64,000 bases of DNA from Massalongia carnosa (lineage: Eukaryota): the NCBI GenBank assembly GCA_965645245.1, contig OZ287079.1, forward strand, positions 434,001 through 498,000, written 5' to 3'. This document shows, in pieces, positions 2,680-63,560 of the stretch (the first letter of the stretch is position 1; each line of letters starts with the position of its first letter). The position numbers were made by a program, and so were the translations under genes. The notes below the pieces were generated by a model. It did not search any database. It saw nothing but the letters and a program-made list of their open reading frames with translations, and had not been told where the DNA came from.

Positions 2680-3013
2680 TCAATATCACCGAGCGAGTAC
2701 GTTCAAGTCGTGATCCTTAACACGCCTGCACTTACGCCATGATGAGGCTGTGGATGTTATGGTACACGTGTCGTGTTACAAGGCTACTGAAGGGCTGACC
2801 CGACGGGCATCAGCTGAGCGTCATAGAGCTGCTGCTTTATCGATCAATCAACAGCCGCAGCGCCACAAATCATCTCAGCCTGGCCTTGGTAATGCCCCAC
2901 CATAGACTCGAACTGCTATTAAAGAAGGACGTCGGCGTTCTACCGAAAAACCGTGGTTTTCTAATGCGTCGCGGATTCTTCGCCGAAATAGATCACGTCT
3001 TTCAAAAATCAAG

Positions 3014-15797: not shown

Positions 15798-16554
15798 GAT
15801 GACGATTTAGGTAGAAGGAGAAGAAGGAGAAGAGGAGCCCTCACAATACGAAGCAGAAGGCACAGCAAGCTCTGTCAAATGCTGTGATCATTGAAAAGCC
15901 CATCGAGGAAGAAGCTTGCGCTGACCCATCGAGGATGCTTCTAGTTTCATTTCTCCAACCATCTCCCGATCATCTCGACATTAAACCGATCTCGATACAC
16001 GAACAAAGATAGCATGAAGAGAGTAGGAGGACGTGCTGAGTTTTCCAGATGCCGAAGCATAGATTTCGGGTTTGAACTGAAGACATTCGATGATTCCCGA
16101 GAATATGAATATAAAATAATATGTGAGGACCTGTTTTTTGGGGTTGAGCCCGCACGTGCAAGAGATGAACAATAGACTGACGATAGGTAAAGCTTAGGCT
16201 TCAAGCTTGAAGAAGACTCTCTCGGCCTTTCAGGCTTTCCAGGTATTACAAGTTCAAATAGATCAGACGGATAAATCTTTTCATATCGTTGCAGTCGAAT
16301 TATTCCCTAGAATTTACATAAATAGACAACATAAATTAGTAAAAATTAGAAATTAGTAAACAATCTTTTTCTAATGATCATGAAATTTACAAATAATTAT
16401 ATTGAATTTAAACTTGAGCTCAATCGTCCAATGATGTTAACGAAATGTATTTCGTGATGAGTGTGGTCAAACGTCGTCCGCATCTGTACAAATAGTCATA
16501 ATAATCACGTGGTTTGCAATGCAAACAGTAGCAAGTGATTCGCTTTTCAATCTA

Positions 16555-17891: not shown

Positions 17892-18122
17892 TGTTGAATG
17901 TTCAACTTCTACCAGCACAACTAGAGATTAGATTAGATCAGATCCAGCCTCACCGCATTGGTTACTCAGGCTCGGATAAACTATTATCACTTCGCTTAGT
18001 AGAGGGTGACCAGTTAAAGGAGAAGATTGCTCTGTAGCAATTCTTCATCTTACACATCAGGGTCATACATATTGTCATTTGTTACATAGCCATATAGCCA
18101 TAGTCATATACCTATTTCAACA
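17892..18122 (+). mobile_element. Solo LTR (copia-related family)
   Basis: TGTTGAA...TTCAACA termini, 5-bp TSD ACTCT (17887-17891 / 18123-18127); similar in reverse complement to the LTRs at 27744 and 33417. Confidence 0.9.
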
Positions 18123-18652: not shown

Positions 18653-19157
18653 GAAGTAACTACCCGTTCCATTCGAGTTTGATGTGAGTGAGAAATTCCT
18701 CGAACGCAATCGCTTTACTTCTATGTGGGCTTTGAGCAAATACTTGTGATGGTGATGATGGCTTCTGATTTGCCTGCTGCGCACATGGTTGAGCGCGAGC
18801 CGACTTTCTCATCGCCAGGGGGTGGGTGGGAACAAGGTTCGTCGGGACTTCCTTGACTCTCTGCATTAGATCGCATTGTGAATAACTGTTCTTGGCTGTC
18901 TAGGGTTTACAGTTCAATGGCGAGAAAACACAAACTTCAACAGCGACAGAGACAGTTCTTCGCGGCTCCAGAAACATCGAACGAGGGATTTTTATCCTAA
19001 TAATAGTGGTGCTTCAGCGGTGAACACCCCGCCTGAACCGTTACATGCATCAAGCCCTTCCTTGACTCGACTTGATACGCAAAAACCCATTAACCCATTT
19101 CGGAGATCAGAGCAAAACTTGGCGAACAGATCATATTTGGCTTACAACCCATCATCG

Positions 19158-27743: not shown

Positions 27744-28017
27744 TGTTGAAATAGGTGTATGACTATGGCTATATGGCTATGTAATAATAAAGGTATATAT
27801 GACCGTGATGTTAAGGATGAAGAGTTGCTAGGCAGCAATCTTTTCCTATTACTGGTCACCCCCTTCTAAGCGAGGTGATCTTATCTTATCTTGGGACTAA
27901 GCCTAATGCGGCATCTACGGTTTCCGTAGATGATCTGTCCATCTAGGACAGCCGTAGGTGCTATGTTCATCGTACTGATAGGTGTTCATTGTGCTGGTAG
28001 GAATTGGATATTCAACA
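27744..28017 (-). repeat. 3' LTR of the copia element
   Basis: Direct repeat of 33417-33690 with about 3 substitutions by eye. Confidence 0.95.
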
Positions 28018-33416: not shown

Positions 33417-33690
33417 TGTTGAAATAGGTATATGACTATGGCTATATGGCTATGTAATAATAAAGGTATGTATGACCGTGATGTTAAGGATGAAGAGTTG
33501 CTAGGCAGCAATCTTTTCCTATTACTGGTCACCCCCTTCTAAGCGAGGTGATCTTATCTTATCTTGGGACTAAGCCTAATGCGGCATCTACGGTTTCCGT
33601 AGATGATCTGTCAATCTAGGACAGCCGTAGGTGCTATGTTCATCGTACTGATAGGTGTTCATTGTGCTGGTAGGAATTGGATATTCAACA
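33417..33690 (-). repeat. 5' LTR of the copia element
   Basis: TGTTGAA...TTCAACA, near-identical to 27744-28017. Confidence 0.95.
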
Positions 33691-36101: not shown

Positions 36102-38768
36102 GAGTACGGATACGTGGACACCCCTTTGGTTACCTGGACACCCCCCAGTGATACACGGACACCCCCTTCCTAGAATAGGTAAGAATCAAGGGTTCAGCCC
36201 CCTCACTTACCCACTTCGGGGTAAGCTCCCGGGCGCATATCGGGGAAATTTTTTCCTTCACCTTTTGAAAGTGGTCGGGAATTTCTGAAACGAAGTCGAT
36301 TGGCACTGTCTTTGCAAATCAGACTCTGATTCTAGAAACTAAGCCTCATTTGGTCTAATTAATGATGATAACCTCCTCATCTCCGCTTGCTGTCGCTGTC
36401 CCCCCCCCCTTGTCACCGTCCCCGCCTCCGAGTCATTTGTAGTCAGCCTATCTGCCAATCCCCTTGTTATAACCCCTCCTCTAGCCCTACCTCCCCGTCC
36501 CCGTCCCCGTCCCCGTCCCCGTCCCCGTCCCCGTCCCCGTCTGCCTCGTCCACGACCAGGTGCCGGGTCCGCTCGATGAACGGCTGATTGATCTGCATCC
36601 GGGTCCACCCGCTCGAAAAGGGAAGGATCACGATTAGTAGATGCCTCGAATGCTTGCTGTCTTCTATTCAAATTCTCCGCACCTGGAGGTCTGCCCCTTG
36701 GTCTAGCAACTTCGGGTGCCTGAACCCGAAGATAAGGATTATCAATAGCCACACGGGCTGTCCTACCAAACCTCCAATGAGGATGAATATCTTCCAATAG
36801 CAACTTTCCCCCCCCATCCCCATACAATCGTTCCTGAATCTTATGACTGCACGGAAGACCCATGGTTAAACTGAACGTTCCAGTACAGGCCGGAATAGCT
36901 GTTGGTTGACCAACCAAACGTTCGTATTGAGGCATTATCTTTCTCAAAGCATAGGAAGTGACGTATGGACTGATTTCCTGAAAGATAGGTTTGCGAATAT
37001 CCATAGGTAGTCGCACCTTCGCTTCATCAAGACGAATCAGATGATTGTGAAGTTCATTGATCAATAGAAGATTGATTCCGTCCACCACCGTCTTAAGATC
37101 TCCAGATGATGACCCTAGCTGTCGCTTAAGTACTGCATGCCCACCTTCACCTCGAGAGGTAGTGGTGGTTTCGAAATGAGTAATCATACTGGTATAGCAC
37201 TTGACAAAACGATGTCGGAAGGGTATGTAGATGTCGTTTAGATATTCCACACATTGATCCTGACCCTGATACTGAATCCTGAATCGCTCCCATGACTCCA
37301 AAAACTCTGGTTCTGACGAGGCATAAACGACCGTTTTCCAGTCAGCGAAGAAGGAGTCCCACACCTCTTTGGTATCGAAGCTCTTCTTGCAATTGGTCAG
37401 GACGTTATTATTGATGTGCCATAAGCAAAGCAGATGATTGGTTGCGGGGAAAACATCATCAATTCCAGCTATCAGACTCTTTTCCATGTCCGTGACTATG
37501 ACGATCGGGTTAGGAAGCATCATCCCATCATACATACCTCGCAATTGCTGCAACATCCAGGTATAATCAGACGTGGCTTCCTTGGCCATGAAGCAAAATG
37601 CCACATAGAAGTTGGTATGTAGGGCGGTTTGACCACTGATGATCAATAAGGGCATCTTATATCTGTTGGTTTGTAAGTGGCGTCCATCACCAACACCTCG
37701 TAATTCGTCTTCAATAGTCGTTGAGAACAGCCCTTAATAAAGAATAAATGAGTTATTCTATCTAGATCATCCTTTTGCATCTGATACGTCCAATCTCCTT
37801 GATCCAGCTCTCGGATTAATGCCTGAACCGGAGTCAATGGGCCGAGTGTCTCGCGACGAAGCTGTGCTTTGACGTTGTAGATATCCCGAGGTTTGAATAA
37901 GGGATTGATGATGTAGGGATTTTCTGGATCGTCAAAATTGATTCCCGTCGTCGGATCAGCAACACGAAGACTAGATAAAATCTTGAAAGGGGCTGTTTGC
38001 ACGATCAGAGCTCGGGAAATCTCACTTTTAACCTCTTTCGTCATCGCCAATTTCCTCAACGCTGGATGAGCACCAGCGAGGGTAGAAGCATGATTATGAG
38101 TCGATTTGACCACCTCCAAAAACCAGATACCACTGTCGTTTTCTCGTGTGGCCACACAAGAGAAATGGCATTCAATTCGTCGGCTACCCGTATGTTGCCG
38201 ATCCTGACCTCTTGGTCCGTCGGTTTTTCTTCCTCGATCACATATCAGCCATGCCTTTCTTGTTACCTTAAGTTTCGACTTCTTGGTTCGACCCAAAACG
38301 ACTGCGTATCCTTGACGACCAGCATGCTCATTGACTCGTAGAACCAGGTCTTCCAGACTTTCAAAACTTTGTCCATCCTCGGGGGGTGCAAGTCCGCCAG
38401 GGGGTAAAGGGCCAGGTGGTCGGGGTGGAGTAGCTGGTTCATCTTCGAGGGGTGCAAGTCCGTCAGGAGGTGGGGCAGGAGGTGGGGGGTCAGGAGGTGG
38501 GGGGTCAGGAGGCGGTGCAGACATGATAAAGTGACAAAATGTTGGTGATAATGATGTTTACGAAGTGCCAAAATGTTGGTGTTTACGGTTGAAAAAAAAA
38601 TTCCCGAGGTGCACCCTCGGGAGCTTACCCCGAAGTGGGTAAGTGAGGGGGCTGAACCCTTGATTCTTACCTATTCTAGGAAGGGGATGTCCGTGTATCA
38701 CTGGGGGGTGTCCAGGTAACCTCAGGGGGTGTCCAGGTAGCCAAAGGGGTGTCCACGTATCCGTACTT
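36102..38768 (-). mobile_element. Mutator-like element (MULE) 1
   Basis: ~140-bp TIRs beginning GAGTACGGATACGTGGACACCCC; 8-bp TSD TAGAATAA (36094-36101 / 38769-38776). Confidence 0.92.
36339..38524 (-). pseudogene. MULE transposase with one frameshift near 37670
   Basis: FAR1-like N-terminus (LICDRG...CHF...HNH), MDATYK|TNRYKMPL, VTDMEK, LCLWHIN, TTSRGEGGH, GLPCSH, AT-hook RPRGRP, RG repeats. Confidence 0.9.
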
Positions 38769-47789: not shown

Positions 47790-48009
47790 TGTTGGCTATA
47801 TGGCTATGATAAAAATGGTAATAACTTGGTCACCCTCTGCTAAGCGAGGTGATAAGATTATCTGAGCCGATCTTATCTAATCTCTAGGCTAAGCCTAATA
47901 CGGCATCTACGGTTTCTGTAGGTGCTCTGTCCGTCTTGGGCAGTCGTAGTTGCCATGTTCATTGAACTGGTAGGTGTTCACTGTACTGGTAGGAGTTGAA
48001 TATTCAACA
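47790..48009 (-). mobile_element. Degenerate solo LTR (copia-related family)
   Basis: Matches the LTR core GGTCACCCTCTGCTAAGCGAGGTGAT...GAATATTCAACA; internally deleted; no TSD. Confidence 0.8.
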
Positions 48010-48254
48010 AGGCCTCAAAGGAGTAGGCGGGATTGATTTAATCCAGCCTTGCATTAGTAGGTAGCTTGCAGCGAATGTACGACCGATAAACGTAAATACA
48101 AGCCCAATTCGATCATTCGTCGAATGTATAGTGTCAAGACCAAGTCCTGGTCAGGTGATAAACGTTGTCCATGCAACCCTCGTATCTCGGACGCGGGATG
48201 TCCGAAAACGAAGTCGCTGCAAAGGCACGTCAAATTCACACGCCAATTTTGCTC

Positions 48255-51200
48255 CGAGGTGCTTAGGGACAGTCCCCCCCGACCGTCCCCCCCCCCCCCC
48301 CTTTGTGTAAATCTTTACTAGTAAACAGCCATTTTACTAATCATCCAGGGTGCGTACAAGCTAGCAGTTACACTACGTATTAATAATGTTGCTGTTACTG
48401 ACTAAGTGTATTCGATGACTTCAACTCCAAAAATTCGTCAGCCAATTGCGATACATCCTCTTTTCTAGGCTTCATAGTTTTAGCCACCTTTCTCATCGCC
48501 GTTTCCTTTCTCGCTTGAGCCCTAGCCTGTTTGACTGATTTCTCGACTCTTTGCTGAGATTCCAACTCCAACTGAGCCTTTGATTTCTTCGCCACACCCC
48601 GAGACCTTCGCGTTGTTGCAGAAGAAGTAGGGAGAATTTGACTGGCGCGCACGTTTTCGCTAAGACTATAAAGAGATGGAGCCGGCGCTGCCTGAGGTAG
48701 GGCTTTTTGACTATGCTTGGCAAGCACATCGTCAATATCTTCGAGCGAATCCGACGAGGCTTCTGATGTAAGAATAATATCATTTTCGTCATCCGAAGGA
48801 AGCATAGGATCCATAGAACGACCGAGAATGGGCTGAGTGCTTATATACTGCATCTCGTCATCGTCGTCGGAGACGATAGACGCGTTTTCGATTCTCTCCA
48901 TAACTAAGTTTTCTCCTAAACCTATTGTACAATGTACCCAATATTAGCCGACCCGAGCGCAATAACTTTGCAACATCGTGAATTTTACCTTCTGTTTCAC
49001 CTTCAACCTCATCGTCGCCCCCAGCACGCAATCTATTATATCTAAGCCTCCTCCCTTGTTCAATAGAGTCCCTTCGCCTAGTACGTCGCTGTTCAGTTTC
49101 TCTAGCCTCAGCTGCCTCGCGACCAGTGTAGGCACGTCGACGACTCCCTTCTTTCTTATACATGAGGTTTCCTTTGGGCCGAATTTCGTCGGGGAATGTG
49201 GTGGGGATGAGAGGTCTTACCAGCTCCTTCTTTTGCCATTTCTTATTAAACTTTTCAACGATGTGAGCATGCTCGCGAGCGTACTCCTCCCTTCGATGAG
49301 AGTCTTCTATTGATTGATGCAGGTCAATAGATTGATATGCCATAGAATGTAGCAAATCAAGGCCCCCGCGGCGAAATCTATCCTCACTCAACACGCCTTC
49401 TTCGAGCTCGACCTCATCCTTATCCGCCTCAATCTCTCCCGTCCCTTCGACCTCATCGACGATCTTTTCGACCTCGGGCTCCGAGCCGCGAGCGAGATCG
49501 AAGGTCATTTGCCAAGAGACCGCATAAGGTGGGCCATCAAAAAACCAGCGGGGGTGGATGAGGGAAACAGGAATAGGGACCGAGTCGATGATGCATTTAT
49601 ACAACCAGCATTTGCATGGGAGACTGTACCTTAAAGGCAACTCACAATCATAAACACAGCTTCCACCATCAGGGACAATAGAAAGGATTCGTTCAGCTAA
49701 TGATTTGGCGGCATCGAGTTCTCTTGAAACGAGGCCAATGGCATGATGCGTAATTTTCCCAATGAGTAACGTAAAAGCATTTCTATCGATCAATCTAGGA
49801 TTGGGTATTCGCTGTTGATTGCACAAAATCTCCTGATCTAATTGTTTTTCCCGCACCTCATCACATATTTTCTGCACCGATTGTCTTATAGGAGTATTTC
49901 TATTGGTCACATTTTTAACCAATGAATGTAGACCTTCTGAACGCTGTGTGCTGTGTGCGCCTAAATTAGGGAGTTTAGTAGTATATGCATGCACGAATTG
50001 AGTTTCTTGACGTTGATAGAAATTCATGAGATAATCCTGCGAAAGAGGTAGCGTTAGCAGTAGCCCTAACTCGCTTGAAATTTAATTTGATATATCACTA
50101 CTAACATTTTTTGCGGGATGAAGTTCATTCAGCAACTTTCTTCGTCTCTCATCCAACTCATCAATAGTGAGGGATTTTATATAATCCCAAATCAGAGTCT
50201 CCAGCTTTTTGCGCACTTCTTGGGGATATTTTCCTGCCTTGATCAGTCGTTTTTTTATTGCCTCGGCCGCATGCCACGTGCACAGCTGCAAAACGCATCT
50301 CTCCTCGCCCGCTTTTATCGTTGATTGGTTTAGATTTTCGGCGACCTCTCTTGCAATGGTCAATGCAGCATCGAGATCAATTGCCGGAGCTTTAGCTTTT
50401 CTTTGCATGGCTACAGTCAACCCAGCTGCAAAATCCCCGAGAATCACCCCAGGCCCGGGGCAATCATCATGAAAAATCAACTCTTTCATACATTCGAAAA
50501 TAAAAGTGAAACATTCGGCCGATTCGGAAGTTATATAGCAATAAGCGACGGGAAACGAAAGGTCGGTGTTAGTGATTCCAACCAAAACGGATAAAGGCAA
50601 GTTCAATTTATTAGTATTGAACGTTGCGTCCGTTTCTAATAAAAACCCACCCACGAAACGTCGAGCCAGCCTAATTTGCTCTGCATTGCAAAAAAAAAAT
50701 TGTTCTATCACCCGTCTCTCACGCACATTATTCTTAACAATATATTTTTCCTTACACCGTACATGAAAGCCCCTGTCTTTCAACGAGCCCAAGGCAAAAA
50801 GAAGCTCTTCTTCAGGCGTGTGAGCTCCCTCCGAATGAGCGAGATTATAATAATCGCTCCTCGACAGACGGAGTCCTTGGATTCCTAATATTCTCGCTGC
50901 TTGGCCATATTGGGTTGACGATGCACGGAGACTCTTCCCTTGATCTAGGGCATCTGTTCGATCAGGGTCCCTACTATGATGTTCTCTGATTGCAAAGGGA
51001 TCAGTGGCCATCTCATGATTGTGCTCGGAGTTAGTGACTATTAGTCTCCATGCATTGTCTTTGTTTTTTTTGAGACGGAGGCGATAAGGGCACTCATTGA
51101 ACGAAACTTTGGTATTGGCTCGCACCCGGTCTTCCTCCTCTACTTTTCTGGTGTTTCTAACTCTTTTGTGGTGGCGTGTGCAGTCTAATACGATTAAATG

Positions 51201-51735
51201 GTTTTTCTTGTCGTGAGTTTCTGTAACCAACGCGAAGCCTTGGGTGAAGGCATAGTCTTGAAGACGAGTCTTTGCCTCCTCCCAAGACGAAAATAACTCA
51301 TTCTCTTGCGGAGGGAGGAGGTGAGGTGGGGGTAGAAGGGCAATGGCATGTTGCTTCCGTGCATCCAAAGAAGTGGGATCGAACTCCATCGCGATGAGGA
51401 GTAGTAAAATATATAATATGAGGTATAGCATAAGTGGAAGGGGAGATTTAGGGCAAAGGGTTAGGATAAGGGCAAGGGCAAATGGTAAGTGAGGGTGAGG
51501 GTGAGGGTGAGGGTGGGGGTGAGGGTATGCTTTATCAGACCGAGTAGGGTAATTATTAGTAGCAATAACACGTCATACGATTTAAACCGAAAAGAGTTTA
51601 ATGTGCTGTTGGCAGTTACATTACTAGCTTGTACGCACCCTGGATAAGCAGTGAAATGGCTGTTTACTAGCAAAGATTTACACAGGGGGGGGGGGGGGGG
51701 GGACGGTCGGGGGGGGACTGTCCCTAAGCACCTCG
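48255..51735 (-). mobile_element. Mutator-like element (MULE) 2
   Basis: ~110-bp TIRs CGAGGTGCTTAGGGACAGTCCCCCC... with poly-C/poly-G runs; perfect 9-bp TSD ATTTTGCTC (48246-48254 / 51736-51744). Confidence 0.95.
48395..51389 (-). pseudogene. MULE transposase (frameshift near 50110)
   Basis: FAR1-like CTRH...CPY...HNH, ETDATFNTN, LGDFAAG, LCTWHA, STQRSEGLH, YSLPCKC, IHPRW. Confidence 0.88.
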
Positions 51736-51996
51736 ATTTTGCTCGTTTGGCCTCAGGATTTTTATTTATGTAGCCGATGACCTTTTGAATTCGAGTTCCA
51801 ATTTCCTCGTATTTAGAAGGCATGATGAGGAGAATGAAAATTTAGGAAGATGATTGATCAAAAAAAATTTGATTTTCGGTTACATGGGTGAACGGCACTC
51901 GTTCCTTCGGAACAAGTGCCCGCCAAGGCGGCACGGATATCTTCCCGGCTTTCGAATGTCGAAACTTACATACTGAGAGTGATTGTATTTTTGAGT

Positions 51997-53176
51997 ATGG
52001 ACACGGTACATCAAAATGGTTCGGTCCCTCATATCGGAGCCGTCATCGACATCGGTGGTAGCAATGTCGAAATTCTCAAGCACATGCTCGAGGAGAGTCT
52101 CCTGGGGAAGAACAACCAACAACAACCCTTGCTGCCTTCAGCAATCATGAGCGACGACGTTGGCTTGCAAATATGGAGTGAAATTACTCACGCTCCCGAG
52201 TATTATCAGACAAGAGTCGAAATTGACCTCTTGAAGCAACACGGAGCGGAAATTGCTCAGAACATACCATCTGGCTGTACTGTGATTGATCTTGGCAGTG
52301 GGTGAGTTATATATCCCCTTCAATTTGGGAAACGGTATCGAGAAAAGAACGACCTCAATCTAATTTTCTTCCTCAGAGATCTTCGTAAAGTAAACCCACT
52401 TTTAGACGCAATTGAAGCAGCGCAAAAGAAAGTAGAGTATTTCGCGCTGGACCTTTCCAAAGAGTCGCTGGAATGCGGCATGAAATTGCTGACGCCGACG
52501 TACAATTTCGTGCGCTGCTCAGGGCTGTGGGGCCGCTTTGAGGATGGCATGACATGGTCAAAAGGGGTCAAGGGCCCAAAGTGGTTCTTATCACTTGGAT
52601 CAATCTTTGGAAATGCTCCTTTCGATGACGCGGTCGCAGGTTTGTCAAAATGGGCTAGGGTCATGCGACTAGAAGATCGGATGCTACTTGCTATGGATGC
52701 GCATACAGACCCAAAAGCCATTTGGAACTCATATCACGATTCACAAGGCCTTTACGAACGCTTTATTCGGAATGGATTGGCCCGGTCGAATGAAATTCTT
52801 GGTCATTCTTGGTATCGAGATGTGGATTGGGAGGTTAATGGACGTCTTCAGGAAGTGCCGCTGATGCATCGAACCGTTGTGACCGCTGTAGGTGACGTTG
52901 CCTGTGACCCATTGGGAATGCGTTTCGCAGCCGGGGATGAGATTCATTGTGATGGAGCCTATAAATACGGCCCAGCGATAATGCACCAAATATTTGCCAG
53001 TGCTGGTCTGAGAGAAATAGCACAGTGGAAAGCGCCCTTTTCGCCAATTTGTAAGGCATCAATCCCCACAATTTTGAAAAAAGATGTATATCTGGTGTTT
53101 ACATTTCATAGACGAATATCTGCTCGCCCTAGACTCGAATGCAGCCTCAAAATCGACGAATGGTTCGACAACTTGA
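51997..53176 (+). CDS. EgtD/EasF-like SAM-dependent amino-acid N-methyltransferase (stand-alone)
   Basis: PEYYQTRVEIDLL, VIDLGSG|DLRKV, YFALDLS, LSLGSIFGN, YHDSQG, YKYG. Introns ~52303-52377 and ~53051-53110. Confidence 0.8.
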
Positions 53177-56100
53177 TATTCAGGCCAAAATCATTGGGTG
53201 CGGCTGACTGCGGCTTTTTTCTTGAAAAAAAAAACCATGTCGTAATTGGGGGGATAACTCGTCACCAATGACGGATAAAATGAATTCAAAGTATATTGAA
53301 TTCGTTCAAAATATGAAGTAAGCTTACGCGACCCCTAATCGGTAAAAATTTACGGAATTGGAGAAAGGTCTGCCGTCCTTAAGCCCCCTTGCCCCTTTCC
53401 CCCTTTCTACCTCCCCCCGTTTCTGTATGACTATGGAAAGTCTAATGAATGTGGGTGCTTTTTACGGCTTGCAATAGGCAGTTGTGGATTATAGATAGTA
53501 TCGATGATGGATATTTAGATTGCTATCTAAGAATCTATGGAAGTGTATGGGGGATACTTATAGTGAGGGAGGACAGTATGTCAATAGTCTTGTCTCTATT
53601 GTTGTAGGCCATTTCATACAGGTAAAGTGATGGGAATAGACAACACCCGGACCACTTTCCCACATAGTATTCCCGCATGGTGTTGAGTGCATAGTGTTTG
53701 AATACTATGAATAATCAATGGGCAGACAGTTTCCAAGGGTTTTTGGGAGGGGGAGAGGGAAGAAGGGGGGTTTTCAGCTATTCAATATTCACTCGTGCCG
53801 GGATACTACCACATTGCCTCTGCAATCATTAGCTTCCTTTAATGAAACATTTCTTGAGGTTTCGCCATTCGTAACTTATATTGTCTGGTCGTGAGTGCCC
53901 GCCGATATAATTGCGAAGAGGAGCTGCAAGTCCAAGCAATACAATAATGTCAAAGATATGGCCTTTTTTGAGACTGAGTGCAATGTCCCAAAAATCTAGA
54001 AAGCGCATAGAACCTTATGATATGAGACTATGCTAATAGATGTAAGAGAATTTGAAAGGCACATCAAAATGTGCGCTACCCGAAAGACCACATGTAGCAT
54101 CGAGTATGATTCCTGCCGGGTCATGCAAACACCTCTGACCGAGCTCGAGACTACGAGAAAAACTGGATCATGGACTCTTACAGCCTTTTGAAACGATGAA
54201 CCGCCCTATGTGTTTGACTGGGGACAAAGGCTCCGCAGAGTGCTACACCCACTGAGCCCCCTTTGAGAACTTCCCACCGGCTAGTTCTGAAGGACAATTT
54301 CCCACCGATCACGGGAGAACGACAGACACGGCGGGATTGGGACCGAGACTGCTTGCATCATGACCTTATGACACTATATGATTTGGGTCGGGGCCAGTGT
54401 AAAAAGTTTAGTCTCGGATCTTCATTGCAGGTTTCTTTGCATACCATAAAAAGATGCTGGTGACAGAGAGGGCTTGGAGGAAGCGGGAAAAAGGCTGGTG
54501 CGAGCGAAGATTTGCTGGCGCTAAGTTTTTCCAACTGCTCTCACGTGTTTAGTCTTCCTTGCAGCGAAAGAGATTCATTTTACATTGGATGAAGATTTAG
54601 CCCATAGCCTACTACGAGATTGGCTTCAACTTCAAGACGTCCTTTCGCTGGGCCATACTGCGGGAGTTTTATCGACCACTGAGGTCATTTAATTAATATA
54701 TAATGATAGATGTAAATGATGAAATCGATGAAGATAACAATAAGAGAGATAGATCGGTAGGCAGGTCAGCAGGCAGGTCAGCAGTGTGAGGGCCCTTCTG
54801 ATTGGTTCTCTTTGATTGATTCTAATAGGTTCGCTATTTAAAATCTCCAGACGAAGTCTATATCTGCTGAATCTATATTGCCTCAGTACCTCAGACGTGC
54901 GTGGCTCTATGAGCCGGCTAAGCCCCTCCGGGTTAGCCTATTTTCGCTAAGCCCCTTCGGGTTAGCGGCCCTTTAGCTGACTACGCATGCTACGGGCGGC
55001 ACGTCTGAGCGCAAAACTCTGTATTTTTGTCAGATCCGGCTTATTTTGGTGCGCGCTCATACAAATTTTTGGCTTAACCTCAAAAATCATCAAGAATCAA
55101 GTTTGTTACGGTTCAACTAGGATGTAATTGGCTATCAACTAGGAAGCTATGAAACTGAAAATATCAAAGATGCAGAAAAGAAACAAGCAAAGGAAGTCCC
55201 CTCTAGGAGTCTATATACATAATTGCTTGCCTCAACACAGCTGTTTGTCTACTTCCTTCGGAAGTGTTCAGTTTGACCAAACAGTGTCTTCTACCTTTGA
55301 TTCTTTCGTCCATCTGTTTGCTTCGGAAGTGTTCTTCCGAAGTGTCCCTTTCATGCCTTTGTTGCCTCTACGGTTTGTCCCTATCCGCTTTGTGATAATG
55401 ATCGTTTAGCGCCACGGAGCTTTCGTCCCTTATGACCGCTTAATCTTGGATTAAGTGACGAGAGTGGTTAGCTTGTCGGCAGAAGCCGTATTCTCGTTAG
55501 TTCAATGAACCAGCCAGTGGTCGAATCGTGACAAAGTTGACGGCGGAATCAACAACGCGCAACGACATTTCATAAATTATGTAGTAATAGAAATGATGCT
55601 TTGATATACATTCTATCGATTAATCAATATTTTAATTAACATATCGATGCAGAATTGAGTCGCAATATCGATCTCGCGACGAGGACTCTGTCATGGAGTG
55701 ACTGGACACCTGCCACACTAACCGGCTAGCCGGTCCGAAAGGAACTAAGCTTGATCCGGACCAGTTAGGGCAATGTAGATGTTCCGGCTGTCAATAGTGT
55801 CATGGCGATAGTGTCACTCCAGGGGCTTGGGGGAAATTGGATCAACAGCTGGATTGGGACTAGTTCAGTTCGCCAGAGTCTTATACTCGCCCACGTTGGA
55901 TTTTCTGATTCTTTTCTCCTTGTCGAACGTCTTGTCACCTAACTAGACAATCAAGTAATACGTTTGCACCACCTGAATTCCTACCTGACCTCGCACCGTG
56001 ACAGACTCGACTTTGACTCGAAATTTCGACACCACCACAGCAGACTCAACGGGTCACTAGCTCCAGTTTTTCATTGTCGGCGCTTCTGATCATTAATCTG

Positions 56101-56223
56101 ATCCTCCGAGCGTTGTTTTCAAAAGCCTAAAATCGTTGAATGTGATGAACTTGCTTGATGTGCGTTTTGCGGGCTAAGAATCCAACTCGCGAATCGTCGA
56201 ATATCGCTCGCGAACACATCGAA

Positions 56224-58402
56224 ATGGACGATCCTATAGCGTCGATAACTCGCGAGCAGGTGACGACCGTGATTTTAAGTAAATTCGGCTTTTCACCAAA
56301 GAATAAGCAAGTTGACGCTATCATGACTTTGGCACAAGATCAAAAGGATCTGATATTTATCGCCAAGACTGGATTTGGAAAGAGTATTATCTTTCAAGCT
56401 ATGCCATTAATGTTCTCTTGTCTTAAGATCGCTTTAATTATCATGCCTCTCAAGACCTTAGAAGCTCAACAGTGCAAGAAATTGAGCGTTATCGAGGGAT
56501 GCAAGCCTTTCGTGTTGGACGGTGATAGTAATAATTCTTCTAATTTAAAGTTAATTCGTGAAAACAATTATACGCATGGTGTGTATTCAAATTATGATTG
56601 AGATAAATATAAAAACTTACTCGTTAATATGAATAGTTTTTACTAGCCCAGAGATAGGGACGTCAAAGCTGTTTAATCAGGAGGTTCTGAGGCATCCAAG
56701 TTTCTTCTTGAATTTATGTCTTTTAGCTCTTGATGAGATGCATCTTGTATCCGAATGGCGAGATTTCCGGCTCGAATACTTCAATCTCGGTGTGCTTCGT
56801 ACACGATTACCAGATGGTATTCCTTTTCTGGGTGCATCTGCAACGCTGGATCCAAGAACCCTAGAGAGCGTTAAAGATCGCTGTGGCTTTGATAACGAAA
56901 GTACTGTTATTCAAACAGCGCTTGATCGTCCAGAGATATACATACAGACAAGCAGTCTACAGCGGCCTATGAACAGCATGATCGATCTTCAACATCTTTT
57001 ACCAACACGGGCTGAGAGTCCTTTTGATATTCCGAAAACGATTATCTTCATGGATTCAATTTCATCTATCAAAAAGGCGTGTGCGCTAATGAAAGTATGG
57101 ATGAATCAATTGTCCTATCCAATTGAGGCCGCTAGTTGGGTCGCGCCTTTCTTTTCCGACATGGCCACCCAAGACAAAGAAAGAATTGCGGCTCGCTTCG
57201 AAATGCCCTCGAATCAATGTAAATTTCCTCGAATCCTGATCGCAACGGATGCATACGGGCTTGGTATTGATAATCCGGACGTTATGAGAGTTACGCAATG
57301 GCTGCTACCCTCGTCAATGGCGAAGCTATATCAACGTTTAGGTCGTGCTTTGCGTTGCGGTCGAGGACAGGCGCATTTTACTCTTTTGCATCCTTCTTGG
57401 TGCATGGGTCCAAGAAGCGGATCAAAAATGGACGAACAGGACGGATCTGATGACGCGAGAATCGAGATTGAATCCAAGGCTAGTAAACGCTGCATCAATC
57501 AAAAGGATGCTGATCGGCGACGAGATATGCCACCGGGTCTTTGGGAGATAATCAATGTGCCTTCAGATGGTTGCGTTCGAGGTATTGGCTTGAATTTCTT
57601 CAATGATAAAGTGTATCCAACGTCGGCCTATGTTAAGCCGCAACCTTGCTGTTCAATTTGCGATCCAAGTTTTCAGACATCAACAGCCGCCAATGAGATG
57701 TTAAATAGAACGGCCGAGCGTGACTCGTCTAGGCGGCCTTGGTTCACTCTTAAACTTCGAGAATGGAGGGAGGCCAAGGCGCAGGAAAAGTTCCCAAATT
57801 CACATATGCGATATTTCCCATCATTGATAATGCCCGATGAGGTACTGAATTCTTTGACCACTTGGGCGGATCAGATTGTGGACGAGCCCACCATGCGGCG
57901 ATGGATTGGTAACAAATGGGCTGGTATTAGGCCCTACGGCGCCGAGCTTTTAGAAATTTTAAAGCGGGGTCAAGCGATGAGATTAGACGAGGGAGACATG
58001 TTCGAGGAATGGAAACGACACAACGACATAAAGCGAAAACGATTACCCAGCCTAACATGCAACTCCGCCAGTATTGAATTTGAGGAACGGAGGAAAAACT
58101 GGATGATCAAACAAGGATATATGTCGAGAAAGGGTTTTAAAAAGCGAAATGCGGTCAAGAAGAAAGTCTCGAAGGAAAGCGAGAGCACGGAGCCATCGGG
58201 CGAGAATCCTGCGCCTAATCACAATATCTCCGATGCGGCGCTCGTTGTTGACAATGTCGATGCTCTTAAATCATCGATGAAGGCATCAAAGACCAAAAAA
58301 GCGCCTCGAGATCCTATGGAAGCGTTGTCGCTGAATGTACCCATGGCCCTTCCTCCGACACGATCTAGACAAGAAAGAAAGTGCCCCGTCCGCTACCTCT
58401 GA
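56224..58402 (+). CDS. RecQ-like superfamily-2 helicase (transposon-encoded)
   Basis: AKTGFGKS, FTSPE, LDEMH, SATL, ILIATDAYGLGID, YQRLGRALR, Cys cluster CVR...CCSIC, HRDC-like LREWRE. One intron ~56579-56636. Confidence 0.9.
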
Positions 58403-58461
58403 CTCTGTAAAGCCGCGCGGCGCGGATTTACATGACTAGGCTATCTCGTGGTATCGATGAT

Positions 58462-61137
58462 TTAATCAAAAAACATACCGCCGGATATCTCGAGACGGGC
58501 CATTGAAATGACAGGGCTGTCGGGGACCTGCTTTGTTTCATTGACAAAATCGGGCTCGGCTTCATACTTACCCTCAAGGTCGTCTGTTGAAATTTCTTTT
58601 GAAATTTCTTCGGAAAGATACTGCTGATTGTATTTTAATACATTTTCTCCAAGTTTCTTCAATCCCTCAACATAAAGATTAGCTGTTGGATTAGTTGAAA
58701 ATCGATCATAGCTTCTTTTACAGAGTGATTTATGCGCTAGTGCCGTAGCCATGCCCCACACATCCTCCGCGGCCGATTTTGCTGGATGCCTTGAAGAGTT
58801 GACTCTTCCAAAGTAAAACTCAACGATTTCTTTGAGCTTCATAAGATATGGACCGTTGAGTGCCCAGTTCTCGAGCAAGATGTCACTATACTTTGAAAAA
58901 TAAGATCGCTCGTGTTGGAACGTCTTGAGGTTATTGTTTAGTATCCCTAAAAGCCGATCAGTCTCAAAACTCGACTCTTCGTCACCGCGTATATTGACAA
59001 GACTATTCATTAAAATACTTTCCTGTAGCCTTATCGCTGCGGAAGAATCAATCGCATGAAGGGTGTATAGAAGAGCTTGCGCATAGTTCGGGGTGCCAGC
59101 TACGCTTGCCTGAAAGATCACTGTTGCGTGGCGCAATGCGTGACGAAGTAGTCCAATATCCGCATATTTGATTGCGTATCGAAGTGTTAGATACGATTCA
59201 ACGTGATCACAGAAGTTCTGATGATTCTGAAATTGTTGATCAAGCGTTGGAGGAAGCATATCTATTGACGTTGAGGGTAATTCCGCGTGAAGTTTGCGAG
59301 ATATCCTGCCCAACATATTCATCCAAGTGCCATCCTGCTCGCAAGTCTGCGCTGTGAGCCACGAAATAGTTGCTTCGATTCGCTGCGGAGCATATCCATC
59401 CTTTCGTAAAAACCTAATCCACGTCCCAACGATTCTAGCTTGATAGCTCTGAATAATCAGATCCTCTAAGGCCTGGAAATCGTTCGGCTGCACGACACGA
59501 GCGCGACCCCACCGATCGGCGGCATATTGAAGAGTCGAAGGATCAACCGGCTGGGCCTCTCCCTAATGTATTTTATGAATAAGCTGCAGCATGTTAAAGC
59601 GAAGATGCCATAACCCTAATCCCGGTAAAATCCAGTCAAACCGATCGAAAGATTGCTCCGATATCCCACGACGTAATTCCTTGACAGATTGCATTCTCGA
59701 CCATGTCTTGAGGTCACCATAGATAAGCCGAATGACGCTTGCAAACGTCGAGTCATCCTCCTTGAACTTGAACTGTCGCACAAATATATCCTCCAATATT
59801 TGAATATTATTAGATGTTGTACTCTCATCCTTCATGGCTAGTTTGATAGGAATATAATTGGTCTTGTATTTTTTCATCTTATTCAGCACGGGCATTGCAG
59901 TCGACCAGGGAAGTTGAACGTCGCCGATCTCTGGGCCATAAAGCGCTCGAATCGCTGACTCTAGATGATGAAGACGAATCTAGGTACGCGGTGCATTAGC
60001 GGTTGAGCGCGGTATATACATCTCGTCCTGTATTGAACTCACCTGCATCTCGAGATCACCAGTCTCCAGCTTTCGCGCGATTCTTTCAGCTGATAAAAGA
60101 TGCGTGGCGGGGCGCCACATATCCTGCCTCAAAGCGCCGGCATCGAATCCTTGCCCCTGGAAAATTAGAGCGGTAGTGATTGATCTGACGTCTCTATTAT
60201 CCCCCGTGCGCTCTCCTCGTTTACCTTCTGCGAAGTCAAAGTTATCGTATGTCAAGATCATGTTTGAGCCTTGTCCTAGCATCTGAATCTTTCGTTCGGC
60301 CTCCTTAATCAAGGATAACATGCGCCGCTGCAGGGTAGTATATGACATCGTCAGGTCAAAATGACAGAGTGTATCTAGAACTTGCCGCCTCGCCCCACCT
60401 TGATAAATATAAAGGCCTAAGACGGACTGAATATTAGTCGCCTTATTTGGTCGCAATTTGTGACAAAGCATTGCCAATATAATGGTGTGCCGGCCGCTGG
60501 GAGAATCCAACGTCACATCGAGAGGTTCCTGCGGGCGAGCCTCGCGACAAACACTATCAATTAGCTCAAGCCATCGTGGCGCCAACTGCTTGGCGGCAGA
60601 TGCAGCAAGTTTAATAGCCTCCAAGGTCCCAAACTCGACTGTCGCAGATGGCGGCTGGAAAGGGCCAAAGGCTGCGTGATCTGCCAAAGCTTTGATTTCT
60701 TCACGAAGCGCATCCGCGGCCCAAACCCATCCTCTCTCGCGAAGGATAGTGGATATTCTACCAGGCCCAATGAGGCTTGAAAAGTCTTCTTGCCGCACAA
60801 TATCGACATAGACAAAATCGAAGAGCTGGCCTTGCGCCTTTCGCATACTATGACGGGCTCGATTCTTACAAAGTATTGATAAAAAATCTTTTACCGACCA
60901 ATTTAGAGAGCTCAGAAATTTAAGCACCTCAACCAGCTTGTCGTAATCTGATATGGGCCGGCGGTGGCGTTTCGCGCCTCCATTTTTTTCAGGTAAGGCA
61001 GGAGGGGAGGAGGAAGAGGGTGAGCTATCATTACTGCCTGACGGCGATGGGTGGGGCCGCTTGAGCGCACCGGCGGGAGTCAAGGGACTTGTCCGTAGGT
61101 CGGTAAGTGGCGAGGAGGGGCCCCCGACAAGAGCCAT
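58462..61137 (-). pseudogene. Academ/DUF6589-type transposase with one in-frame TAG
   Basis: HFDLTMSY, TYDNFD, IYGDLKT, GLWHLRFN, LRYAIKYADIG, NSLVN..G..FETDRLL. Intron ~59980-60041; TAG at 59563-59565. Confidence 0.75.
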
Positions 61138-61721
61138 GGCTTTCGTCAGATAGCTTCAATCTAGATAAATCATACAATACCATTGATTGGCCGTCATTAT
61201 TCATATCATCATGATCTTTGTAACTCAATGTAATCGCGCTACATGAAAATAATCAGTTCATCAACCTCAAAATTGAGCGAAAGCGAGCAATTTATCACTT
61301 AATCGACTCTCACGCTTTTTATAGCCTGACAGTGGTTATAACACATGATTATCGAGTCATCCATCTTGAGAGGTGCGTTTTTGGTATAAAATACAGTCTC
61401 TGGTAAACTAATACGACCCTAACCACTGTATTAAATCCATAAAAGGAAAGGTTGCACTGCTAAAATTTTTATTACGCGGATCTGGCCGTAATTTTGAGTT
61501 TTGCGCTCAGACGTGCTATCGCACTGATGTTAGTCAGCAGCGACGCTAACCAGAAGGGGCTTAGCGAAAATAGGCTAATCCAGAGGGGCTTAGCCGGCTC
61601 ATAGAGCCACGCACGTCTGAGGTACTGAGGCAAGTGCCCAGTTACTCCATGACAGTGCTTACATAAAAAACCTGAAACCCTGAAAACCTGGCCAAAAAAA
61701 CTCAACCGTGAAAACCCCTAA

Positions 61722-61909
61722 TATGTATGACCCTGATGTGTAAGATGAAGAATTACTATAGAGCAATCTTCTCCTTTAACTGGTCACCCTCTATTAAGTG
61801 AAGTGATAATAGTTTATCCGAGCCTGAGTAACCAATGCGGTGAGGCTGGCACGCTGGATCTGATCTAATCTAATCTCTAGTTGTGCTGGTAGAAGTTGAA
61901 TATTCAACA
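61722..61909 (-). mobile_element. Truncated LTR, same subfamily as 17892-18122
   Basis: Close reverse-complement match to the 17892 solo LTR; ends TATTCAACA. Confidence 0.8.
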
Positions 61910-61950
61910 CTATAGTTATATGGCTATGATAAAAATGGTATGTATAACCG

Positions 61951-62500
61951 TGTAAGAGTCAGACCTGGCGACCATCAGACACCAGGCCTAGGGATATGTG
62001 ACAATGTGAAGAGACTAGTGATTGCTATACTAATATACTAAAAGAAGTATGTAGGTAAAGCGGAAGACTAATTGTTGAAGATTGCATCTCCCTCGAGCAG
62101 CCTCCTTATATACCCGGACCGAAGCCCTTGACCCTCTGGGCCCTTGATACTGTAACTATCTTGACCGCCTATTACTCCTACCGGATAAGCCGGCTAAACA
62201 CTCTGCTGAATGCATCGTGGACACTGTGCTGACTGTATCGTGGACACTGTGCTGACTGTATCGTGGACACTGTGCTGACTGTATCGCAGACACTGTGCTG
62301 ACTGTATCGTGGACACTGTGCTGACTGTATCGTACCATCCGCTCACTAATCGTACGAGCATCCTCGTATATCTCGATCGCTCGTACTATACTCTCGGCAG
62401 TAGATACTGCAGACCAGCTGCTTCCCATATGACTAAGCCTAGCCCTAGAACTAAGCCCCGCTTAGTTAGCTTTAGCCCTTATTCCTTCTATGCCCTGACA
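61951..62500. mobile_element. Solo LTR (550 bp, different family) with an internal 23-bp tandem repeat
   Basis: TGT...ACA termini; TSD AACCG (61946-61950 / 62501-62505); five CGTGGACACTGTGCTGACTGTAT-type units at ~62216-62332. Confidence 0.88.
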
Positions 62501-62993: not shown

Positions 62994-63286
62994 TTGTCCC
63001 ATAACTGGTCACCCTCTGCTAAGCGAGGTGATAAGATTATCTGAGCAGATATTATCTAATCTCTAGGCTAAGCCTAATACGGCATCTACAGTTTCTGTAG
63101 GTAGTTGCTATGTTCATTGAACTGGTAGGTGTTCACTGTACTGGTAGGAGTTGAATATTCAACATATACTGAGTGCCGTATTTCTTAGTTTCACGGCAGT
63201 CGACGATTTCGAGGACTTCATATTCTTCATGAGGACTGGATTCGGCGTCTTCTTGAATTAGTATCGGGGGACCCGGTTTAATAAGT

Positions 63287-63560
63287 TGTTGAATATCCAA
63301 TTCCTACCAGCACAGTGAACACCTATTAGTTCAATGAACATAGCACCTACGGCTGTCGTAGATGGACAGGCCATCTACGGAAACCGTAGATGCCGCATTA
63401 GGCTTAGTCCCGAGATAAGATAAGATCACCTCGCTTAGTAGAGGGTGACTAGTAATAGGAAAAGATTGCTGCATAGCAACTCTTCATCCTAAACATCACG
63501 GTCATACATACCTTTATTATTACATAGCCATATAGCCATAGTCATATACCTATTTCAACA
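63287..63560 (+). mobile_element. Solo LTR of the copia element family
   Basis: 274 bp, reverse complement of the 27744/33417 LTRs with several substitutions; TSD TAAGT (63282-63286 / 63561-63565). Confidence 0.92.

Follow-up and report, generated by a model that had tools for sequence, protein, structure and literature searches.

Academ is a little-studied superfamily of DNA transposons. Its AcademX members have an XPG nuclease fused to the transposase and make a 3-4-bp target-site duplication (TSD), and Kojima reportedly recognized AcademH as a further lineage of the superfamily in 2020 (Mob DNA 11:15). Outside this superfamily, Helitrons carry an HUH Rep fused to a Pif1-type SF1 helicase and are without terminal inverted repeats (TIRs). 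According to the available parts of the published accounts, AcademH elements have 9-10-bp TSDs (PMC10045372) and have already been published from Ascomycota (PMC10799480), Academ elements in bivalves have a mean length of 5565 bp (PMC10294476), and fungal AcademH and Academ are described as low-copy by citing papers. The accessible part of another account describes KolobokH as carrying a RecQ helicase and as known only from fungi, with RecQ on the complementary strand in one Kolobok family (PMC9587614). No report of lichen-fungus relatives was found in the literature searched. We analysed a 64-kb stretch of DNA, hereafter the window. Its positions 54878-61633 are very probably an AcademH-type element, a helicase-encoding Academ DNA transposon of roughly 6.0 kb, in a copy that is decayed and non-autonomous. 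Transposons of this kind are already described, and the window copy adds a member whose host is most probably an ascomycete that forms lichens.

Anatomy of the element and its lesions

The element is present once in the window. Since an independent copy recovered in sequencing run X6 departs from the window sequence exactly at 54878 and 61633, these positions are the real ends of the element. Its features are listed below.

54878-61633: probable AcademH-type element, 6756 bp, with TIRs at both ends
54878-55038, plus strand: left TIR, tip TTGCCTCAGTACCTCAGACG
54917-54966, unstranded: two 21-nt imperfect palindromes GCTAAGCCCCTYYGGNTTAGC (54917-54937 and 54946-54966), 29 nt spacing, with mirror copies at 61545-61565 and 61574-61594
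55099-55538, unstranded: nested insertion 1, body 55104-55533, 430 bp, TGTTACG...CGTGACA, 5-bp duplication AAGTT
55684-56008, unstranded: nested insertion 2, body 55689-56003, 315 bp, TGTCATGG...CCGTGACA, 5-bp duplication GACTC
56224-56578, plus strand: helicase exon 1, ATG through motif I (AKTGFGKS)
56579-56636, plus strand: helicase intron, 58 nt, GT..AG, at aa 118/119
56637-58402, plus strand: helicase exon 2, with DEMH, SAT, motifs V and VI, Cys cluster and basic C-terminal region
58462-59979, minus strand: transposase exon 2, 505 codons and stop, the DUF6589 part
58945-58947, minus strand: Gly codon GGG at position 731; Glu in 26 of 27 aligned family members, the window copy being the sole exception
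59563-59565, minus strand: premature TAG at W525 (TGG to TAG); Trp (HWG) in siblings and in every aligned relative
59980-60042, minus strand: transposase intron, 63 nt, GTGAGT...CTAAT...TAG, where full-length relatives are gapped
60043-61137, minus strand: transposase exon 1, 365 aa, with YDNFD and the D298 codon at 60244-60246
61477-61633, minus strand: right TIR, tip and foldback architecture as in the left TIR
61634-61654, unstranded: right-flank repeat, 21 nt, in inverted orientation identical to the beginning of nested insertion 2 at 19 of 21 positions

The TIRs, Pfam and profile matches bear out the preliminary description of a TIR-bounded element with a RecQ-like helicase on the plus strand and a DUF6589 protein on the minus strand. 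Both genes have two exons and are convergent, and the helicase stop (58400-58402) and the transposase stop (58462-58464) lie, as had been given, 59 bp apart. The TIRs had been put at about 140 bp; the repeats themselves stand, with a measured core of 95 nt at 95% complementarity (54878-54972 against 61539-61633) that, with gaps, reaches 55038/61477, about 161-164 nt at 84%. The 30-nt TIR tip occurs exactly twice in the window and the 21-nt palindrome gives four matches, against 0 expected in each case (100 shuffles for the tip). The tip is invariant across four families (conserved tip TTGCCTCAG..CTCAGAC), and L007 holds a related palindrome. At the left end, CCTCAGACGTG (11 nt) and its inverted copy around 54999-55010 pair to give a foldback; foldbacks leaving a 10-19-nt tip free were found in six of the eight ends folded (z -3.1 to -7.5), with stem sequences that differ between families. 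The 21-nt palindromes may serve as protein-binding sites or form hairpins.

The helicase ORF is intact, with 706 aa in total and 99% identity to the sibling protein P0080, and its intron position is common to L001, L005, L008/L009 and L010. Pfam recognized DEAD and Helicase_C together with a weak Cas3-like_C match. In the profile search WRN was the best match (2e-34), followed by RecQ, RECQ5, BLM, RECQ1 and RECQ4, whereas DEAD-box RNA helicases were matched only at 1e-8. Pfam detected neither RQC nor HRDC nor a RecQ Zn-binding domain in the helicase. A cellular RecQ helicase was considered and rejected, given this lack of RQC and HRDC and the 43 near-identical member sequences on many contigs.

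The minus-strand gene encodes 870 aa when read through a nonsense codon, and Pfam PF20231 (DUF6589) matched its two ORF pieces at 9e-24 and 5e-28. Of two in-frame TAGs, one (59980-59982) is intronic, forming the 3' splice site of the 63-nt intron, and the other (59563-59565) is a real nonsense mutation. ORF fragments of transposase relatives break at query residues 366-415. Exon 2 of the window copy contains GDLKT (D475), GLWH (H511) and DRLL[G] (D727, position 731). Conservation among aligned family members is high at D298 (26/27), N299 (27/27), G474 and D475 (28/29), H511 (27/28), D727 (26/27) and E731 (26/27). At base 58946, all contigs covering the site, from four runs, give GAG (Glu), and both lesions are private to the window copy, W525 and E731 being intact in its siblings. 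Since W525 is replaced by a stop and Gly stands at the invariant Glu731, the window transposase is dead, and therefore this copy could move only with transposase from intact siblings, which exist. The window copy, first described as near-intact, is decayed and non-autonomous; in addition to W525 to TAG and E731 to G it carries two nested insertions in its 5' part. These insertions, both upstream of the helicase, look like solo LTRs and are missing from most other copies, X1, X4 and X5 having the joints 55098->55534 for insertion 1 and 55683->56004 for insertion 2.

The DUF6589 family, the Academ profile and related copies

The DUF6589 family was compared with the published RNase_H_Academ HMM (Yuan & Wessler 2011, extended by Muszewska 2017; PMC5751038, supplementary file 1). 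The comparison covers 117 of the 465 profile positions, and the 33 scanned positions were selected after those 117 had been read. Among them, the profile consensus has fDNwD (2-6), gDQp[l/t] (190-194), gfFH (220-223) and DealE (450-454) (PMC5751038). The DUF6589 family has the motifs YDNFD, GDQKT, G[L][F/W]H and DxxxE, collinear with these blocks, and the spacing is similar, at 188 in the profile against 177 in the family between D1 and D2, and 263 against 256 between D2 and E. A G...W...D pattern precedes DxxxE in both, although its spacing differs. A constrained scan was performed with 33 of the 465 positions, collinearity and spacing limits, and 100 shuffles per protein. For the window protein the score was 36.8 bits, whereas its shuffles averaged 20.8 (sd 3.8) and none of the 100 reached that score. 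Thirteen of 16 proteins (the window protein and 15 full-length relatives) beat all 100 of their own shuffles and the remaining three were reached by 1, 5 and 10, whereas two control proteins from the window stayed at shuffle level (44 and 49 of 100). With the spacing limits lifted the match was weaker: only two of the four blocks fell where expected in the window protein, and the summed score was attained by 11 of 500 shuffles. On this motif evidence, the DUF6589 family appears to be a homologue of the Academ RNase H-like DDE domain.

A PDB profile search with the transposase gave no match. The structural neighbours of an Atlas model of the relative P0109 (pTM 0.67) were DUF6589, PF30719 and clusters without a named family. 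The DUF6589 family comprises 1086 representatives at E<=0.001, and its Atlas clusters come from fungi and animals (Basidiomycota, Mucoromycota, Arthropoda, Cnidaria, Mollusca), a range that agrees with the account of Academ and AcademH in the available parts of the citing papers.

Sibling copies with 97-99% protein identity are spread over many Mb-sized contigs. The helicase cluster has 43 members at >=90% identity, one member sequence being on 10 contigs, and the transposase cluster has 72 members, one of them on 7; the contigs carrying members of either cluster are 1.27-3.77 Mb long. In addition, four sequencing runs contributed 4282, 162, 340 and 11 contig pieces that align with the stretch. 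With near-identical siblings on many contigs and thousands of mapped pieces, the family is therefore multicopy, young and recently active. Near-identical copies also have different flanks (X6 compared with the window, and L003 with L004). Six related metagenome loci include >=2.5 kb of DNA downstream of the helicase. In four of them (L005, L008, L009 and L011) the helicase is followed by a DUF6589 gene in convergent orientation, and the remaining two are deletion derivatives bounded by TIRs. The agreement of 12 helicase and 12 transposase relatives in the size of their longest contig indirectly supports the pairing. The TIRs and the gene pair thus both recur in other copies and related loci. 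Because the family matches the Academ profile in four collinear motif blocks and the helicase-transposase pair recurs in related loci of a multicopy family, the AcademH-like reading of the preliminary description is upheld.

Movement of the element and alternative explanations

As an AcademH-type transposon, the element would be mobilized by the 870-aa DDE-type DUF6589 transposase, with D298, D475 and E731 as the putative catalytic residues. The protein would bind the roughly 160-bp ends, with their conserved tip, two 21-nt palindromes and internal foldback, and would then excise the element and insert it elsewhere. The 706-aa RecQ-like SF2 helicase, transcribed convergently, would be a conserved accessory that may unwind or remodel the structured ends, or donor and target DNA, during the reaction.

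Neither of the two complete copies examined, those in the window and in L004, showed the 9-10-bp TSD that had been expected for AcademH. The ends of the window copy, with flanks ...CTATA on the left and GTGCC... on the right, have no TSD of any length, and the last 11 nt of the left flank have no copy to the right of the element. The match of 61634-61654 to the start of nested insertion 2 marks the right flank as repeat-derived, a possible reason why no TSD is seen there. L004 (1054-3618), the only other complete copy seen, also has no TSD; this metagenome contig comes from short reads and may be a chimera. In X6, the last 9 nt of the left flank recur with one mismatch 16 nt beyond the right end (p about 0.002 by our own estimate), which hints at a 9-bp TSD.

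It is improbable, but worth weighing, that the same element moves by a helicase-assisted replicative or circle/tandem-junction route that would leave no TSD, comparable to that of copy-out-paste-in bacterial insertion sequences. Such a route would fit the absence of TSDs in two of two complete copies, and also the junctions at which a right end, 8 nt and a left end follow one another. One contig of run X1 joins 61633 through 8 nt to 54878 (depth 424 against 839 in single-copy flank), and the metagenome contig L008, of an unrelated family, has a bona fide right end, 8 nt and a left end. The foldback with a free tip in six of eight ends would furthermore be a plausible RecQ-type substrate. However, there are only these two junctions, on one contig each, and in repeat-rich DNA elements often insert side by side; the lack of TSDs can be put down to mundane causes, the right flank of the window copy being repeat-made and L004 possibly chimeric. 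The X6 9-mer and the 9-10-bp TSDs stated for AcademH in the available part of PMC10045372 also argue against such a route, and inverted motifs within ends are ordinary transposase-binding sites as well. The broader idea that AcademH may be, instead of a plain cut-and-paste transposon, a eukaryotic analogue of copy-out-paste-in insertion sequences, in which the helicase would open foldback ends and the element would be an end-to-end junction with an 8-nt spacer in transit or on insertion, leaving no regular TSD, is by analogy conceivable, and we hold it to be slightly less probable still. It is hinted at by the two independent 8-nt-spacer junctions in two families, by two of two complete copies without TSD, and by family-specific compensating stems beside a conserved free tip.

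Very unlikely is an origin from another helicase-carrying group of DNA transposons such as KolobokH. The available part of PMC9587614 does describe fungal KolobokH with a RecQ helicase, on the complementary strand in one Kolobok family, but the C/DxxH of Kolobok, hAT, P, MuDR and Dada is absent here (C or D three residues before H511 in 0 of 27), as is TTAA from the ends. Moreover, helicase and transposase are separate genes in convergent orientation, with no fusion of the helicase downstream of the transposase, and the four motif blocks fit the Academ profile. A host RecQ paralogue and an unrelated hypothetical gene between chance inverted repeats, or an immobile domesticated pair, would suit the public annotation of the relatives as RecQ helicase and hypothetical protein, but is scarcely credible given the TIR tip found exactly twice against 0 expected, near-identical copies in different flanks (X6; L003 and L004), dozens of member sequences over many Mb-sized contigs, and the RQC, HRDC and RecQ Zn-binding domains not found by Pfam.

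With the element read as an AcademH-type transposon, neither the helicase nor the transposase of the window is a host gene. The preliminary description foresaw mislabelling, and public sources indeed call the relatives 'superfamily II DNA helicase RecQ' and 'hypothetical protein'. The Pfam family DUF6589, 'of unknown function' and with over a thousand 50%-identity clusters, gains a concrete label, as it appears to be the Academ transposase; therefore many fungal and animal annotations as 'RecQ helicase' and 'hypothetical protein' would be transposon genes. A young, high-copy AcademH family with intact siblings and a natural helicase-only deletion derivative is good material for testing helicase function.

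Comparison with known transposons

Helitrons resemble the window element as eukaryotic transposons that encode their own helicase, whereas the window element has a DDE-type protein, a RecQ-like SF2 helicase and long TIRs. KolobokH is likewise a fungal DNA transposon with a RecQ-like helicase; in contrast to it, the window element has neither C/DxxH nor TTAA, and its helicase is a separate convergent gene. By motif comparison, AcademX would share its transposase superfamily with the window element. AcademX has XPG, whereas the window element has a helicase gene instead, and Pfam found no XPG domain, and DUF6589 only, in the window transposase and its full-length relatives P0109, P0167 and P0158. 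The placement in AcademH and not AcademX is provisional and is drawn from two features, a helicase gene being present and an XPG domain absent. With AcademH, known from fungi and animals, the element shares TIRs, an Academ-type DDE transposase and a separate SF2/RecQ-like helicase, although the two complete copies examined here show no 9-10-bp TSD. The size of the window family, about 6 kb, is within the range of Academ elements, and whereas fungal AcademH and Academ are low-copy as described, this family is high-copy and very young.

Element ends, gene content and lesions

The preliminary description had placed the borders of a TIR transposon at 54878 and 61633. Both were upheld by a separate copy in X6, one of four sequencing runs (X1, X4, X5 and X6) whose contigs were aligned to window positions 54000-62500: its likeness to the window stopped exactly at these two positions, indicating that they are the true ends of the element. 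The element, 6756 bp long and present in one copy in the window, has a GC content of 45.8% (window, 46.9%) and is bounded by TIR arms of 95 nt each (54878-54972 and 61539-61633) that are 95% complementary; with gaps, the match extends to 55038 and 61477 (about 164 aligned nt, 84%). The 30-nt TIR tip was found at exactly two places in the 64 kb of the window, with zero expected (100 shuffles), and a 21-nt imperfect palindrome is present in two copies per element end (four matches, zero expected).

Features of the element (window coordinates)
55099-55538: nested insertion 1, 430 bp, TG..CA ends (TGT...ACA), 5-bp duplication AAGTT
55684-56008: nested insertion 2, 315 bp, TG..CA ends (TGT...ACA), 5-bp duplication GACTC
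56224-56578 and 56637-58402, + strand: exons of the helicase gene, with a 58-nt GT..AG intron; product 706 aa
61137 (ATG) to 58462-58464 (stop), - strand: DUF6589 gene (Pfam DUF6589); spliced product 870 aa
59563-59565, - strand: second TAG of the DUF6589 gene, in place of a Trp kept by siblings and relatives (motif HWG)
58945-58947, - strand: codon GGG (Gly), Glu in 26 of 27 aligned family members

The plus-strand gene encodes a RecQ-like helicase, as had been proposed. Pfam detected DEAD and Helicase_C domains and neither RQC nor HRDC, and the usual SF2/RecQ motifs (AKTGFGKS, DEMH, SAT, ATDAYGLGIDNPDV and YQRLGRALRCG) are all present in the translation. The family profile matched WRN best (2e-34), followed by RecQ, RECQ5, BLM, RECQ1 and RECQ4, with DEAD-box RNA helicases ranking later, at 1e-8. 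Helicase relatives at L001, L005, L008/L009 and L010, which are loci on metagenome contigs found with the helicase alignment, break at the same residue, 118/119. The proposed minus-strand DUF6589 protein was likewise borne out by its Pfam match, and the distance between the two stop codons was measured as the claimed 59 bp.

A 63-nt intron (60042-59980, GTGAGT...CTAAT...TAG) ends in the first in-frame TAG of the DUF6589 gene (59980-59982), which serves as its 3' splice site. Full-length DUF6589 relatives, including the annotated Teloschistes gene model P0003, are all gapped exactly over the 21 codons of this intron, and ORF-based relative fragments stop at query residues 366-374 or begin at 388-415. 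The second TAG and the GGG codon lie in positions where the sibling proteins P0244 (97% identical to the window copy over 478 aa) and P0285 have both Trp and Glu intact, and at base 58946 all covering contigs, from four runs, carry the base that gives GAG. Of the earlier view that the copy is near-intact, the part concerning the helicase held, its ORF being intact and 99% identical to that of the sibling P0080; the part concerning the transposase did not, given the Trp-to-TAG and Glu-to-Gly changes. Differences between the window copy and the X1 contigs are mostly transitions (A>G 22, T>C 29, G>A 24, C>T 15), and substitutions relative to the aligned contigs are without strong one-way bias; no sign of heavy RIP was seen.

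Segments 55099-55533 and 55684-56003 are missing from most other copies, as seen from joints in X1, X4 and X5, and their removal gives a consensus element of about 6001 bp. Both nested segments, which lie in the 5' region of the transposon, probably represent solo LTRs from a high-copy family. Summed depth in X1, X4 and X5 peaks in the bin 55704-55987, and no further copy of either insertion was found elsewhere in the window. The 315-bp insert begins with 32 nt (55688-55720) that resemble the inverted sequence of 61623-61655 (28 of 33), which consists of 21 nt beyond the right end and the outermost 11 nt of the TIR, and another stretch resembles the TIR part CCGGCTAAGCC; the short repeat may have captured an element junction, or the likeness may be due to chance.

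The surrounding window is rich in repeats. A MITE-like family of 150-275 bp has six copies (17892-18122, 27744-28017, 33417-33690, 47797-48010, 61720-61952 and 62994-63560), of which the last is itself a foldback (62994-63463), and a tandem array at 62175-62356 holds about 7-8 copies of the 23-bp unit ACACTGTGCTGACTGTATCGTGG. Further transposon remains at 36342-38557, 48398-51572, 16532-17755 and 29842-30555 comprise two Mutator-like elements (MULE and FAR1/AFT domains), a Tc1/mariner-like DDE_3 ORF and a copia-type integrase fragment. An open 896-aa ORF at 18882-21572 (+), directly downstream of a MITE-like repeat, has no Pfam match and is unrelated to the DUF6589 family according to the block scan described below. 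On the left side of the element, the closest gene of host type, at 51892-53271 (+), encodes a histidine-specific SAM methyltransferase (Methyltransf_33, EgtD-like) in two adjacent same-frame ORFs split by a stop, which could reflect an intron or a pseudogene.

Comparison of the DUF6589 family with the Academ profile

Our literature search found no link between DUF6589 and transposons, the sole mention being as an unknown domain of rust fungi, and the supplements of PMC10799480 mention neither DUF6589, PF20231 nor Academ. The family was therefore compared with the published Academ RNase H-like profile, an HMM in supplementary file 1 of PMC5751038, of which 117 of 465 positions were used. On the DUF6589 side we used alignment A1 (35 sequences) and dropped the 150-sequence A2, which contained misaligned fragments 8-15% identical to the query.

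Blocks shared by the Academ profile and the DUF6589 family
Block 1: profile f-D-N-w-D at 2-6; family YDNFD at 297-301
Block 2: profile g-D-Q-p-l/t at 190-194; family GDQKT (window GDLKT) at 474-478
Block 3: profile g-f-F-H at 220-223; family G-L-F/W-H at 508-511
Block 4: profile D-e-a-l-E at 450-454; family DRLLE at 727-731

The spacing of the blocks is similar, with 188 and 263 positions in the profile against 177 and 256 residues in the family. In a constrained scan, emission scores of 33 profile positions were used, only collinear blocks were accepted, and the distances between them could depart from those in the profile by up to +/-45, 15 and 45 residues. The score of the window protein was 36.8 bits, a value reached by none of 100 shuffles (mean 20.8, sd 3.8). 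Among the 16 proteins scanned, the window protein and 15 full-length relatives, 13 scored above all 100 of their own shuffles and the remaining three were equalled by 1, 5 and 10 of 100. Block positions coincided with the aligned motif columns in most relatives. Two controls, the window helicase and the unrelated 896-aa ORF, stayed at shuffle level (44 and 49 of 100). Other observations speak against the match. Without the spacing constraint the scan was weakly discriminating: only blocks 1 and 3 found the sites in the window protein, and the summed score was equalled by 11 of 500 shuffles. A G...W...D pattern precedes DxxxE in both the profile and the family at different spacing, and the block directly upstream of DxxxE was left out of the scan for this reason.

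A PDB sequence search with the transposase profile returned nothing beyond a chance match at E 0.5. The C/DxxH signature, which PMC9587614 gives for Kolobok, hAT, P, MuDR and Dada, is absent from the DUF6589 family: C or D stands three residues before H511 in none of 27 sequences. DUF6589 clusters in the Atlas come from Basidiomycota, Mucoromycota, Arthropoda, Cnidaria and Mollusca, a spread that agrees with the reported Academ/AcademH range. In one mollusc cluster, 14% of the members carry a PHD finger. One animal AcademH lineage reportedly has a PHD finger, and the mollusc cluster agrees with this. We read the window copy, with good though not complete confidence, as a decayed, non-autonomous AcademH-type element.

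Related loci, copy number and host range

The helicase-alignment scan of metagenome contigs yielded 15 loci. Of the six with at least 2.5 kb downstream, four (L005, L008, L009 and L011) have the helicase followed by a convergently oriented DUF6589 gene, and two (L002 and L004) are deletion derivatives. At L004, positions 1054-3618 form a 2565-bp element that holds only a truncated helicase and has the tip TTGCCTCAGTGCCTCAGACC and its inverse at its ends; L003 is the same derivative with another flank, which shows that it is mobile. Indirect support for the gene pair comes from 12 helicase and 12 transposase relatives that share identical 'longest contig' values. The tip TTGCCTCAG..CTCAGAC is invariant across the window element, L001, L003, L004 and L007, and the ends of L008 and L009 carry TTGTCTCGG as tip; the right end of the L009 family could not be located. 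The helicase-only derivative of about 2.6 kb (L004, L003 and L002) occupies at least two different sites in soil metagenome contigs. At L004:41 and L002:8326 the right end of another element, TTGTCTCAGTCAGCTCAGACC, was observed.

The family is multicopy and young. The 90%-identity helicase cluster has 43 member sequences, one of which, P0080, occurs on 10 contigs; for transposase exon 2 the cluster numbers 72, with P0285 on 7 contigs. Among those listed, contigs with cluster members measure 1.27-3.77 Mb and may belong to more than one assembly. X1 contributed 4282 contig pieces to the alignment, of which 2341 are at least 99% identical, against 162 from X4, 340 from the lichen metagenome X5 and 11 from X6. 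One X1 contig matches the window with zero differences across the unique left flank and 27 nt into the element.

For both proteins, the closest named relatives are from lichen-forming fungi (Teloschistes, Icmadophila, Peltigera and Pseudocyphellaria). Copies 0.5-1.5% different from the window sequence were seen in runs that bear different organism labels (A, B and C) and in the lichen metagenome, and the unique left flank only in X1 and, thinly, X4. One fungus present in more than one sample, a set of close relatives, or horizontal spread could account for the near-identical copies across runs. The X6 and window insertions were rejected as orthologous, as the X6 right flank is absent from the window; the likeness of the left flanks is also weak (78 of 2000 shuffles as good).

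Target sites, terminal folds and relation to known elements

The window flanks are ...TGAATCTATA| and |GTGCCCAGTT... The 9-10-bp TSD expected from the preliminary description was found at neither the window copy nor the L004 element. Neither has a TSD of any length, and the window copy has no displaced one, the last 11 nt of its left flank occurring nowhere to the right of the element. An ordinary explanation is available in the repeat-derived right flank: its first 21 nt resemble the terminus of the solo-LTR-like family (19 of 21), and a MITE-like repeat follows from 61720. For L004, the metagenome contig may be chimeric. X6 gives a hint of a TSD, in that the 9-nt sequence bordering the element on the left reappears, with one mismatch, 16 nt past the right end (p about 0.002 by our own estimate over 21 offsets).

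In a single X1 contig, 61633 is joined to 54878 with 8 nt between. Likewise, at L008:1982-2063 a left end comes 8 nt after a right end that belongs to the L008/L009 family; about 85 nt of this right end can be recognised, with the same sub-terminal motifs. These junctions in two families could have arisen from insertion in tandem or side by side, or could be a junction form of the element. Both window ends, taken as single strands, give the same multi-branch fold, closed by an 11-bp stem beside a free 12-nt tip (z -4.9 and -5.1; 0 of 200 shuffles as low for either). L001, the L004 left end, the L007 right end and L009 give a like fold with different stem sequences (z -3.1 to -7.5), and the L004 right end (z -0.9) and L007 left end (z -0.1) do not. 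The foldback features could equally be inverted protein-binding sites.

On this reading, the element is a further transposon of the AcademH kind, a kind already described. According to citing papers, AcademH elements are low-copy in Basidiomycota, Ascomycota and Mucoromycota (PMC10799480), TSDs are 9-10 bp for AcademH and 3-4 bp for AcademX (PMC10045372), and most fungal taxa have Academ elements in low copy number (PMC5751038, Table 1); our literature search found no relevant publication on Academ in lichens. From AcademH as reported there, the present elements may differ in the 9-10-bp TSD, seen at neither the window copy nor L004, and they differ in belonging to a high-copy and young family rather than a low-copy one. 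What is added to the known picture is the link between DUF6589 and Academ, a host range in lichen fungi, a young high-copy family and leads on the element ends.
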